From assembly GCF_016903815.1 (NCBI RefSeq), contig NZ_CP069973.1: DNA of 64,000 bases. One strand, given 5' to 3'. Positions 35,839 through 45,332 of the stretch are shown in pieces (positions within the stretch are counted from its first letter, which is position 1; the number at the start of each line of letters is the position of its first letter). The notes below the pieces were generated by a model. The model did not search any database and was not told where the DNA came from. It saw only the letters and a program-made list of their open reading frames with translations. A program made the position numbers and the translations under genes. The stretch is from Escherichia coli (lineage in GTDB: Bacteria > Pseudomonadota > Gammaproteobacteria > Enterobacterales > Enterobacteriaceae).

Positions 35839-36284
35839 ATCAGTCGCTTACCCTTGCTTTTTTGATTGCCGCCGGAATTGGTCTGGTGGTGCAAAACACG
35901 CTGATGGTGCGCATCACCCAGAGCTCCTCTACCATTCTCATCGCCATGTTGCTGAACTCTTTGGTAGGAATTGTGCTGTTCGTTTCTATTTTGTGGTTTA
36001 AACAAGGTATGGAGGGGTTTGGTGAACTGGTGTCCAGCGTGCGCTGGTGGACACTTATACCTGGCTTGCTGGGATCGTTTTTTGTCTTCGCCAGTATCAG
36101 CGGATATCAGAATGTGGGAGCGGCGACAACTATTGCGGTACTGGTCGCCAGCCAGCTGATTGGCGGTCTGGTGCTGGATATCTTCCGCAGCCATGGCGTA
36201 CCACTACGAGCGTTGATCGGCCCAATTTGTGGCGCAATTTTACTTGTGGTTGGCGCCTGGCTGGTGGCCAGACGCTCATTTTAA
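35835..36284 (+). CDS. ydcZ: DMT-superfamily inner membrane protein
   Basis: 149 aa hydrophobic; 4-nt overlap with mnaT. Confidence 0.8.
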   Translation: MNQSLTLAFLIAAGIGLVVQNTLMVRITQSSSTILIAMLLNSLVGIVLFVSILWFKQGMEGFGELVSSVRWWTLIPGLLGSFFVFASISGYQNVGAATTIAVLVASQLIGGLVLDIFRSHGVPLRALIGPICGAILLVVGAWLVARRSF

Positions 36285-36518
36285 TCAGAGGATGGTGCCG
36301 CCTTTGGTTAACTGTTCATGGCGCGCTTCCATATCTTCTTTATGTTTGCGACCGTGATGGGCGATCGCTGTGCGCAGACGCTGCTGCTGGGTATAGCGTT
36401 CTTCCCGACTTAACTCCGCATCATCGCTCAGGGCGATTAATAATTCGTTCATATGGGCAATGACGCTCTCTTCAATCGCGGCATCCACGCGCGCGATGAC
36501 TTCATCCAGATGCGACAT
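36285..36518 (-). CDS. ydcY: Small uncharacterised protein YdcY
   Basis: 77-aa ORF; synteny. Confidence 0.65.
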   Translation of the reverse strand: MSHLDEVIARVDAAIEESVIAHMNELLIALSDDAELSREERYTQQQRLRTAIAHHGRKHKEDMEARHEQLTKGGTIL

Positions 36519-36603
36519 ACTTTCTCCTTAGCCACTTGTGAAATTTATCGATTCATCCAAATGATATAAGTCTGCGTGGTGCCGTCAAGCCAGTGAGTAA
36601 GAT

Positions 36604-36777
36604 TTAAAACAGTGAAAACAACAGCGCCACCGGGAAACTCATCGGCCATGTTGCCCCCACCAGAAAGGCGCTTAAGAAACGGATGCGTTTCTTATCGTGA
36701 GAAAGAAACCAGGTGATAAGAAATGAGATTGCTGCCATAACCGCATAAAAAACAAGCATATGTTGATAGAGAGACAT
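36604..36777 (-). CDS. ortT: Orphan membrane toxin OrtT (YdcX)
   Basis: 57 aa from MSLYQHMLVFYAVMAAISFLITWFLSHDKKRIRFLSAF..., internal Met of the track ORF. Confidence 0.7.
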   Translation of the reverse strand: MSLYQHMLVFYAVMAAISFLITWFLSHDKKRIRFLSAFLVGATWPMSFPVALLFSLF

Positions 36778-37163
36778 GTACGGGCGTCCAGCCAGATGAA
36801 TAAAACGCGCGCAAATATGCGTCATTTTTTGACGTACATCAAGTTTTTTAACCGGTTTGAGAAAAAAACATCAAACAGCAACTTGCCCTTATCCATCTTC
36901 AGAATGAGTATTATTGCGGATTTTCTTAACCCGTACTATACACATAGGGGCAATGATAAAAGGTGGCAAAAATGAATGTTTCCAGTAGAACTGTAGTACT
37001 GATAAATGTCTTTGCTGCTGTTAGTTTGTTTACTCTTATCTCTATGAGATTTGGCTGGTTTATTTGATGTAGTGATTTTGCACGCAGCACGTACTGTCAG
37101 AGAAATCAGTGCTCTGACAGTACGCAAGATCTTCTCATACTCTTACGATCTGCAATATTATCC

Positions 37164-38588
37164 TTAATGTTTAACCATGACGTGGCGGACGACGGTGTAA
37201 TCCTCCAGCCCATAAAGTGACATATCCTTGCCGTAACCAGAAAGTTTCTGCCCACCGTGCGGCATTTCACTTACCAGCATGAAATGGGTATTGACCCAGG
37301 TACAACCATATTGCAGCCGCGCGCTGACGCGATGCGCCCTGCCCACATCTTTCGTCCATACCGAGGATGCAAGTCCATACTGGCTGTCATTTGCCCAGTT
37401 TACCACCTGTTCTTCATTGTCGAAGAGCGTAACACTCACTACTGGACCAAATACCTCTTTTTGCACGATGGCATCGTCCTGTAATGCGCCAGCCAGTAGC
37501 GTCGGCGCATAGTAATAGCCATTACCCTTGCGCTTTTCACCGCCAGTGATCACTTTGATGTGCCCTGTCGCTTTCGCCTCTTCTACCGCCTTGCTGACGC
37601 GTTCGAGATGCGCCAGCGAACTTAAAGGTCCAAGCTCCGTAGAGTCGTCATCCGGCGCACCCGATTTTAACGTTGCCACTGCAGCACCAAGTTTTTCCAC
37701 CAGCGTATCGTAAATGCCTTTTTGCGCATAGATCCGACAAGCCGCTGTACAATCCTGTCCGGCATTGTAATAGCCAAAAGTACGTACACCTTCGACCACC
37801 GCTTCAATATCCGCATCATCAAAAACTATCACTGGCGCTTTGCCACCAAGTTCCATATGAGTACGCTTTATGGACGGCGCGGTATGGCTGATGATGTGCT
37901 CGCCGGTGGCGATAGAGCCCGTCAGCGACACCATCCGCACTTTGGGATGACCGGTCAGCGGATCGCCCACCGTTTTGCCTCTGCCAAACAGTACGTTAAT
38001 CACGCCTGCCGGGAAGATATCTTTCGCCAGCTCTGCCAACTTCAACGCGGTCAGCGGGGTAATTTCTGATGGTTTAAGCACTACACAGTTCCCTGCCGCC
38101 AGCGCCGGAGCCAGTTTCCACGCGGCCATCATCAGCGGATAATTCCACGGTGCGATCGAAGCCACGACCCCCAACGGATCGCGACGGATCATCGAAGTAT
38201 GACCTTCAAGATATTCACCTGCCGCCAGACCATTCAGACAGCGCGCCGCACCAGCGAAAAAGCGAAAAACATCGACAATCGCCGGGATTTCATCATTGAA
38301 CGCACTATGCAGCGGTTTGCCACAATTACGGGACTCCAGTTCGGCAAAAACCTGACCATTTTCTTCGATAACATCAGCCAGTTTCAGCAGACATTCCGCA
38401 CGCACTTTCGGCGTGGTTTGCCCCCATTCGGCAAATGCTGCATCTGCCGCGCGCACAGCAGCATCGACCTGCTCTGCGGATGCCTCGGCAATCTCCAGTA
38501 AAACGTCCCCCGTTGCCGGATTATAGACAGGCTGTTTTTCCCCTTCGCCGCTAACCAGTTCTCCGTTAATCAGTAACTTATGTTGCAT
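37164..38588 (-). CDS. patD: Gamma-aminobutyraldehyde dehydrogenase
   Basis: 474 aa; aldehyde dehydrogenase family; [27 protein letters not shown]. Confidence 0.9.
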
Positions 38589-45101: not shown

Positions 45102-45332
45102 ATGTTTACGAAGGCGTTATCGGTTGTCTTATTAACGTGTGCGCTGTTCTCAGGACAACTCATGGCAGGGCACAAAGGACATGAATTTATGTGGGTAAAG
45201 AATGTGGATCATCAGCTACGTCATGAAGCGGACAGCGATGAATTGCGTGCCGTGGCGGAAGAGTCGGCGGAAGGTTTGCGCGAGCATTTTTACTGGCAAA
45301 AATCGCGCAAACCAGAAGCGGGACAACGTTGA
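45102..45332 (+). CDS. yncJ: Secreted small protein YncJ
   Basis: 76 aa with signal peptide; synteny. Confidence 0.75.
   Translation: MFTKALSVVLLTCALFSGQLMAGHKGHEFMWVKNVDHQLRHEADSDELRAVAEESAEGLREHFYWQKSRKPEAGQR

Follow-up and report, generated by a model that had tools for sequence, protein, structure and literature searches.

The perfect inverted repeat at positions 37090-37124 of the window (the whole stretch of 64,000 nucleotides that was analyzed) is very probably the 3'-terminal stem-loop of the mRNA of yncL, a small gene that converges with patD. On balance, the hairpin probably acts as a barrier to exonucleases after Rho-dependent termination, rather than as the terminator itself. The reading as a whole, with a 3' hairpin of yncL, Rho termination beyond it and exonucleolytic trimming back to it, is the one that we consider probable. 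The class of such elements is already known; the yncL hairpin is a well-supported addition to it, and its 3' end is already present in a published dataset.

Arrangement of the yncL-patD region

The features of the region are as follows.

36604-36777, minus strand: ortT (RefSeq annotation)
36936-36942, plus strand: putative sigma-S-type -10 element CTATACA of the yncL promoter, proposed from conservation
36972-37067, plus strand: yncL coding sequence, 31 aa, MNVSSRTVVLINVFAAVSLFTLISMRFGWFI (RefSeq "stress response membrane protein YncL"; orthologues found by tblastn)
37068-37089, plus strand: 3'UTR spacer of 22 nt between the yncL stop and the hairpin
37090-37102, plus strand: left (5') arm of the hairpin, CGTACTGTCAGAG (window letters cgtactgtcagag)
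37103-37111, plus strand: hairpin loop of 9 nt, AAATCAGTG (aaatcagtg)
37112-37124, plus strand: right (3') arm of the hairpin, CTCTGACAGTACG (window letters ctctgacagtacg)
37125-37143, plus strand: 3' flank CAAGATCTTCTCATACTCT, partly conserved, C-rich and G-poor, candidate rut start outside the mature RNA
37127, plus strand: steady-state RNA 3' end mapped by Term-seq
37128-37413, plus strand: antisense of the 3' part of patD; Rho would stop yncL read-through here
37164-38588, minus strand: patD, gamma-aminobutyraldehyde dehydrogenase (open reading frame list and RefSeq annotation), convergent with yncL

The original prediction had placed the repeat between patD and ortT. The patD side of this description stands, but the other side is imprecise: the nearest gene on the ortT side is yncL, which had been missed. 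The stops of yncL (plus strand) and patD (minus strand) thus face each other across the repeat, which is 22 nt past the former and 39 nt past the latter. The yncL frame closes with TGA at 37065-37067 and is present in the list of open reading frames in a GTG-extended form (36963-37067). The window is chromosomal DNA of E. coli, and the 1.2 kb of the region that was tested is 100% identical to strain 7/2. Residue 18 of YncL is Ser in this window and Gly in the other E. coli genomes sampled.

Sequence, fold and rarity of the inverted repeat

The repeat is real as originally described: both the sequence and a repeat finder give two arms of 13 bp that are 100% complementary and separated by a 9-nt loop. 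The stem has seven G-C pairs, and the element is a GC-rich stem-loop of the kind expected in a canonical terminator. The calculated folding energy is -21.6 kcal/mol for the plus-strand RNA and -22.5 kcal/mol for the minus-strand RNA, with a z score of about -5.5 (none of 200 shuffled sequences folds as well), and the centroid fold of the complete predicted yncL transcript retains the hairpin. The absence of a U-tract on either strand, also part of the original description, is confirmed by the flanks, CAAGATCTTCTC on the plus and TGCTGCGTGCAAAATC on the minus strand, both free of a T-run. A consensus-based terminator scan made no call at the site.

Within the 64-kb window this is the sole perfect hairpin-type inverted repeat of at least 13 bp (loop of 3-20 nt). 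Forty first-order Markov simulations of the window yielded no such repeat, and the analytic expectation is ~0.02 per window (64,000 x 18 x 4^-13). The 13-bp repeat is thus beyond chance. The second-longest perfect hairpin repeat of the window, at 45273-45313, has 11-bp arms (GGTTTGCGCGA and TCGCGCAAACC) and a 19-nt loop.

A palindrome without function could also arise by template-switch repair of quasi-palindromes, which is able to perfect inverted repeats without any selection. Such an origin, or one by plain chance, is very improbable here, given the low expectation per window, the hairpins of differing sequence that several genera retain at this position, and the abundant RNA end that maps to the hairpin.

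Mapped 3' end of the yncL RNA

A steady-state 3' end on the yncL strand has been mapped by Term-seq at MG1655 position 1517039(-), with 75,264.6 reads in LB at OD 0.4 and 536,300 in LB at OD 2.0 (PMC7815308), and it is present in all three conditions, M63 included (PMC7815308 Supplementary file 1). Coordinates of MG1655 were transferred to the window through the NC_000913.3 locus (L089 in our set). The stem occupies NC_000913.3 1517076-1517042(-), and the RNA (...CUCUGACAGUACGCAA-3', window position 37127) therefore ends exactly 3 nt past the last pair. The original prediction turned on the presence of a transcript 3' end at this site, and in this respect it is supported by this strong end. 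It had tied the hairpin to patD, however, and this part does not hold, as the mapped end is on the opposite strand and, in the comparisons described below, the hairpin travels with yncL. Adams et al. 2021 classified the peak only as "antisense to patD" (PMC7815308); we reassign it as the 3' end of the yncL mRNA.

Upstream of yncL, the block CCGTACTATAC is conserved in the Escherichia, Citrobacter and metagenome orthologues. Transcription would start near 36948-36950, and the predicted yncL mRNA, counted from the CTATACA element, is monocistronic with a length of ~180 nt. The Salmonella orthologue of yncL is STnc1110, a 195-nt sigma-S-dependent RNA (PMC5437024, PMC4014581). This fits both the ~180-nt transcript and the seven-fold stationary-phase rise of the E. 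coli 3' end, and by analogy with Salmonella, together with that increase, E. coli yncL is presumably sigma-S dependent as well. The likeness to STnc1110 (termed a "coding sRNA") covers the orthologous gene, the length and the stationary-phase expression. YncL mRNA is listed among the partners of the sRNAs RprA and KilS (RIL-seq, TRIC-seq; PMC8175672; bioRxiv 10.1101/2025.09.11.675593), which indicates that this short mRNA takes part in sRNA interactions.

Rho-sensitive read-through and proposed trimming back to the hairpin

Downstream of the mapped end, on the same strand, lies a Rho-region peak at MG1655 1516753(-), which corresponds to window position 37413, inside patD and 286 nt past the 3' end (PMC7815308). 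DirectRNA-seq reads upstream and downstream of this position number 220 and 9 without bicyclomycin, and 106 and 72 with it (PMC7815308 Supplementary file 2), giving a Rho score of 16.6 (p = 5e-21), the score being calculated from 800-nt windows (PMC7815308). The read-through that is sensitive to bicyclomycin presumably starts at yncL, with another promoter as a conceivable source. A text search of the literature returned no paper combining patD, antisense and bicyclomycin. An end at stem +3 with a bicyclomycin-sensitive region beyond it on the same strand agrees with the first option of the original prediction, a Rho-dependent or processing structure.

The RNA that follows the stem is rich in C and poor in G (11 C as against 4 G within 39 nt of the stem). 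Over 80 nt downstream the C/G ratio is 1.36, which is only the 81st percentile of the window and usual for the antisense RNA of coding regions. Citrobacter-type loci (CGATCTTCCCACTC) and a divergent Escherichia locus (L009) have sequence related to the flank after their hairpins, and the flank at 37125-37143 is a candidate for the start of a Rho-loading (rut) tract. Two GATC (Dam) sites, at 37127-37130 and 37148-37151, flank a weak 5-bp stem located after the hairpin; most yncL orthologues (Citrobacter, L009, L096) have retained the first of them.

In the mechanism that we propose, RNA polymerase would mostly pass the hairpin, because the stem is not followed by a U-tract, and would continue antisense into patD. 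Shortly beyond the hairpin, Rho would load on untranslated RNA that is rich in C and poor in G, and would terminate transcription within a few hundred nucleotides. The tail would be trimmed by the 3'-to-5' exonucleases PNPase and RNase II back to the hairpin, which would block them, set the mature 3' end and protect the ~180-nt yncL mRNA. The idea of protective 3' stem-loops on Rho-dependent transcripts is said to have been put forward as a hypothesis by Peters et al. in 2012. Dar and Sorek (2018) described Rho-dependent E. coli transcripts that end directly after stable stem-loops devoid of a U-tract, followed by sequence with more C than G, and trimmed by PNPase/RNase II from diffuse downstream termination sites (PMC6061677). 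At the yncL locus, the stable stem-loop (-21.6 kcal/mol) stands directly upstream of the steady-state 3' end, with no U-tract after the stem and no A-tract before it, and downstream read-through increases under Rho inhibition (as measured in 800-nt windows); the combination of stable stem, missing U-tract, end at the stem base and Rho-sensitive read-through leads to a reading of the Dar and Sorek type. The yncL case differs from theirs in its unusually short transcript (~180 nt) and in a hairpin that may be shared with a convergent gene; its dependence on exonucleases and the loading of Rho are predicted from the class. With it, the known class gains a phylogenetically supported case of a protective stem-loop without U-tract on a very short mRNA for a small protein. 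The general understanding of termination is unchanged: at the ends of E. coli genes, such a feature is routine.

In size, energy and position just past the stop codon, the yncL hairpin resembles a canonical intrinsic terminator. It differs in having neither the 7-8-nt U-tract nor an upstream A-tract, in the end at +3, and in the Rho-sensitive read-through downstream. Intrinsic release usually takes place at +7 to +9, after a U-tract of ~7-8 nt, whereas only 3 U are found in the 9 nt past the yncL stem (CAAGAUCUU), where the terminator scan is silent. A non-canonical intrinsic terminator, in which the hairpin releases many polymerases (maybe with NusA/NusG), the RNA is nibbled to +3 and Rho mops up the rest, is an unlikely alternative that draws on the very stable stem, the sharp and very abundant 3' end, and the suggestion of Dar and Sorek that inefficient intrinsic terminators with Rho as backup may exist among the U-poor stem-loops (PMC6061677). 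The mapped position, +3 and not +7 to +9, the bicyclomycin-sensitive read-through, and the lack of an adjacent U-tract in all orthologues as well speak against it. It should be noted that weak hairpin-driven termination with subsequent trimming would give the same +3 end.

The end could also be made by an endonuclease rather than by trimming, with RNase III cutting a patD/yncL duplex or with RNase E. This origin is quite improbable. The end lies 3 nt outside the intramolecular stem, a typical stall position of an exonuclease, and RNase E prefers RN↓WUU, which the local CAA↓GAUC does not resemble. PatD-sense RNA, moreover, appears scarce where the yncL 3' end is strongest. What speaks for cleavage is a reported overlap of the convergent patD and yncL transcripts (PMC12288877) and a changed yncL mRNA level in arrays of RNase E/RNase III mutants, confirmed by northern blotting (PMC3082872).

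Association of the hairpin with yncL across loci

The yncL loci compared comprise a divergent Escherichia (L009), three Citrobacter species, Superficieibacter and 18 metagenome contigs, the latter being matches to a DNA pattern of the yncL start region (14 distinct sequences, of which one is E. coli-like). In every locus with yncL, the stop of the gene is followed within 20-35 nt by a stable hairpin with no adjacent U-tract, and this hairpin is kept whether or not patD adjoins. In Citrobacter, yncL is 2.3 kb away from patD and the hairpin is still present. In Superficieibacter, the place after yncL is taken by a GC-rich hairpin of unrelated sequence. Most enterobacterial patD genes (80 patD loci of other species) have their own canonical terminator and no yncL nearby. 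In the divergent Escherichia, the 22-nt spacer on the yncL side is identical to that of the window, whereas the spacer on the patD side differs at ~45% of positions. Taken together, the end of the stop codon, the spacer and the left arm are matched exactly by 5091 of 5412 E. coli records.

In ~22% of complete E. coli genomes (5415 genomes with a match, 4244 of them spanning the junction), a segment of 1.3 kb parts patD from the hairpin, which remains 22 nt from yncL. The segment (positions 6640-7990 of locus L002; its site in the window is ~37144-37173) encodes a CatB-related O-acetyltransferase and includes, for patD, a canonical hairpin-plus-T terminator, TAGTGGCTGTTATAGGACGGCCACTA followed by TCGTTTT; its junctions share CTTAAT(A/G)TTTA. 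No homology was detected between its acetyltransferase and the Citrobacter open reading frame that adjoins yncL. Since Citrobacter carries unrelated genes at the same spot, the site between the hairpin and patD is, judging from these loci, a variable hotspot. An integron attC origin of the acetyltransferase segment was considered and rejected, the junctions having no core of the GTTRRRY type. Directly downstream of patD, the three Citrobacter species have a conserved non-coding block of ~100 nt (L011 ~3950-4040, and the same position in L013 and L014), which reads ...CGCGCCACTGGCCTCGTCGCCATCGGACGGCGGTAAGTTGGAA.TATCCGCGAGGTCAGGC... and is followed by a terminator hairpin; the block gave no Rfam match at E <= 0.01.

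Conservation of the helix

The structural alignment contains 23 distinct Escherichia, Citrobacter and metagenome sequences and a helix of 15 pairs, and is less certain at the stem base. The helix is paired in 84% of cells, as compared with 34-51% after a shift of the 3' partner by 1-3 columns. Changes on both sides are seen at 8 of the 15 pairs, and none of 500 shuffles reaches the observed values. An 8-bp core was found independently by RNAalifold. Among the clear independent compensatory events, L009 has changed U-A to C-G and L102 has changed A-U to G-C, and in the core CTG[T/G]CAGAG a U-A pair of Escherichia stands against G-C in Citrobacter and others. Many of the compensatory counts are common by descent, so only ~3-4 independent events are estimated. 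The loop varies among taxa in both sequence and length, with a core-to-core distance of 9 to 12 nt. The aligned loci show that a stem-loop directly following yncL has been conserved in structure among enteric genera.

In the E. coli genomes sampled, the arms are invariant. Among eleven haplotypes chosen for maximal divergence, 0 of 26 arm positions are variable as against 8 of 50 non-arm positions (one-sided hypergeometric estimate, p ~0.03), and the variation falls in the loop, the spacer and the flank. The loop is polymorphic (AAATCAACT, AAAACAACT), and the E. coli population is dimorphic for three adjacent substitutions at 37109-37111, GTG versus ACT; with ACT, the stem is longer by one A-U pair. 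Common single-base variants 3' of the stem are C/T at +1 (37125) and T/A at +9 (37133).

The original prediction had also offered a protein-binding site. An operator of a dimeric regulator, or a cruciform with a role at the DNA level, would agree with the perfect 13-bp half-sites and their invariance in the sampled E. coli. The compensatory changes and the variable core spacing fit an RNA stem, however, and not a protein operator with fixed spacing: the arm changes keep the pairing but not the sequence. The site is also located between two 3' ends and not at a promoter, it is single-copy in the genome, and the hairpin of Superficieibacter, at the same place, is unrelated to it. The DNA-level role is accordingly disfavored, as a most improbable alternative. 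A LexA box (CTGT...ACAG) was ruled out by its spacing, which is 19 nt and not 8.

Comparison with known elements

Bidirectional terminators of convergent genes, as reportedly described by Ju et al. in 2019 (Nat Microbiol), have their stem flanked by an A-tract and a U-tract, one on each side, and are intrinsic in both directions. The yncL hairpin is similar to them in being one palindrome between convergent stops that could fold in both transcripts, but the sequence beside its stem is rich in A or T on neither side. Lacking the U-tract, the hairpin is neither a canonical nor a bidirectional intrinsic terminator.

As an intergenic palindrome able to protect upstream mRNA from exonucleases, the hairpin also resembles REP/BIME elements. 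It differs from these in its sequence, which has no relation to the REP consensus, in its restriction to the yncL locus and in being single-copy, and for the last reason is not of the REP type. A query of 41 nt (spacer and left arm) matched one place per genome in 5411 E. coli genomes; the further copies that the original prediction had suggested searching for were therefore not found. A 55-nt query with the hairpin gave a median of two places per genome, taken as the two strands of the same palindrome. Within the window, only chance matches with 2 mismatches were obtained.

An Rfam scan of 36000-38000 at E <= 10 gave no match at the hairpin or yncL, and the hairpin is outside any curated Rfam family. 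The sole match in this interval is a sucA motif inside patD, at 37886-37968 on the minus strand (20 bits against a gathering threshold of 40, E = 1.1), which is almost certainly due to chance.

A possible role of the hairpin for patD

The hairpin of the minus-strand RNA may in addition end the ydcSTUV-patD mRNA, making the element a shared 3' end for both transcripts. Such a two-way role is compatible with the protective stem-loop of yncL, and we regard it as possible, at rather less than an even chance. The two mRNAs would in this case necessarily overlap by at least the hairpin common to them. The minus-strand hairpin is equally stable (-22.5 kcal/mol), and neither the sequence nor the repeat finder shows a further stem-loop in the 39 nt between the patD stop and the hairpin. 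Other genera, and the E. coli variant with the 1.3-kb segment, have a separate canonical patD terminator; the role in patD is plausible because the common E. coli arrangement is without the separate terminator seen elsewhere, and in this arrangement the hairpin may be the sole 3' stem-loop of the patD mRNA. The ExcludonFinder list for MG1655 includes patD-yncL as a convergent pair with overlapping transcripts (PMC12288877).

On the patD side, however, the spacer is poorly conserved, and the Term-seq sheets for LB at OD 0.4 and 2.0 contain no patD-sense 3' end near the hairpin (1517039-1517357; PMC7815308), though patD is probably poorly expressed in these two conditions. A further step, in which the yncL hairpin without U-tract became a shared two-way 3' end and thereby forced an antisense overlap ("excludon") of yncL with ydcSTUV-patD, is a speculative proposal that we consider unlikely. 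If true, the expression of sigma-S-induced yncL and that of ydcSTUV-patD, which serves putrescine catabolism, could each affect the stability or termination of the other. A shared hairpin points to a possible coupling of yncL and patD.

Of the neighboring genes, ortT also has a hairpin in its 5' region, at 36799-36830 on the minus strand, followed by TTTATT. A weak 3' end at MG1655 1517357(+), equivalent to window position 36809 and 32 nt before the ortT start, has been mapped by Adams et al., with a Rho score of 0.5 and an intrinsic-terminator score of 3.2 (PMC7815308). This hairpin may be a leader attenuator of ortT or the end of a short transcript.
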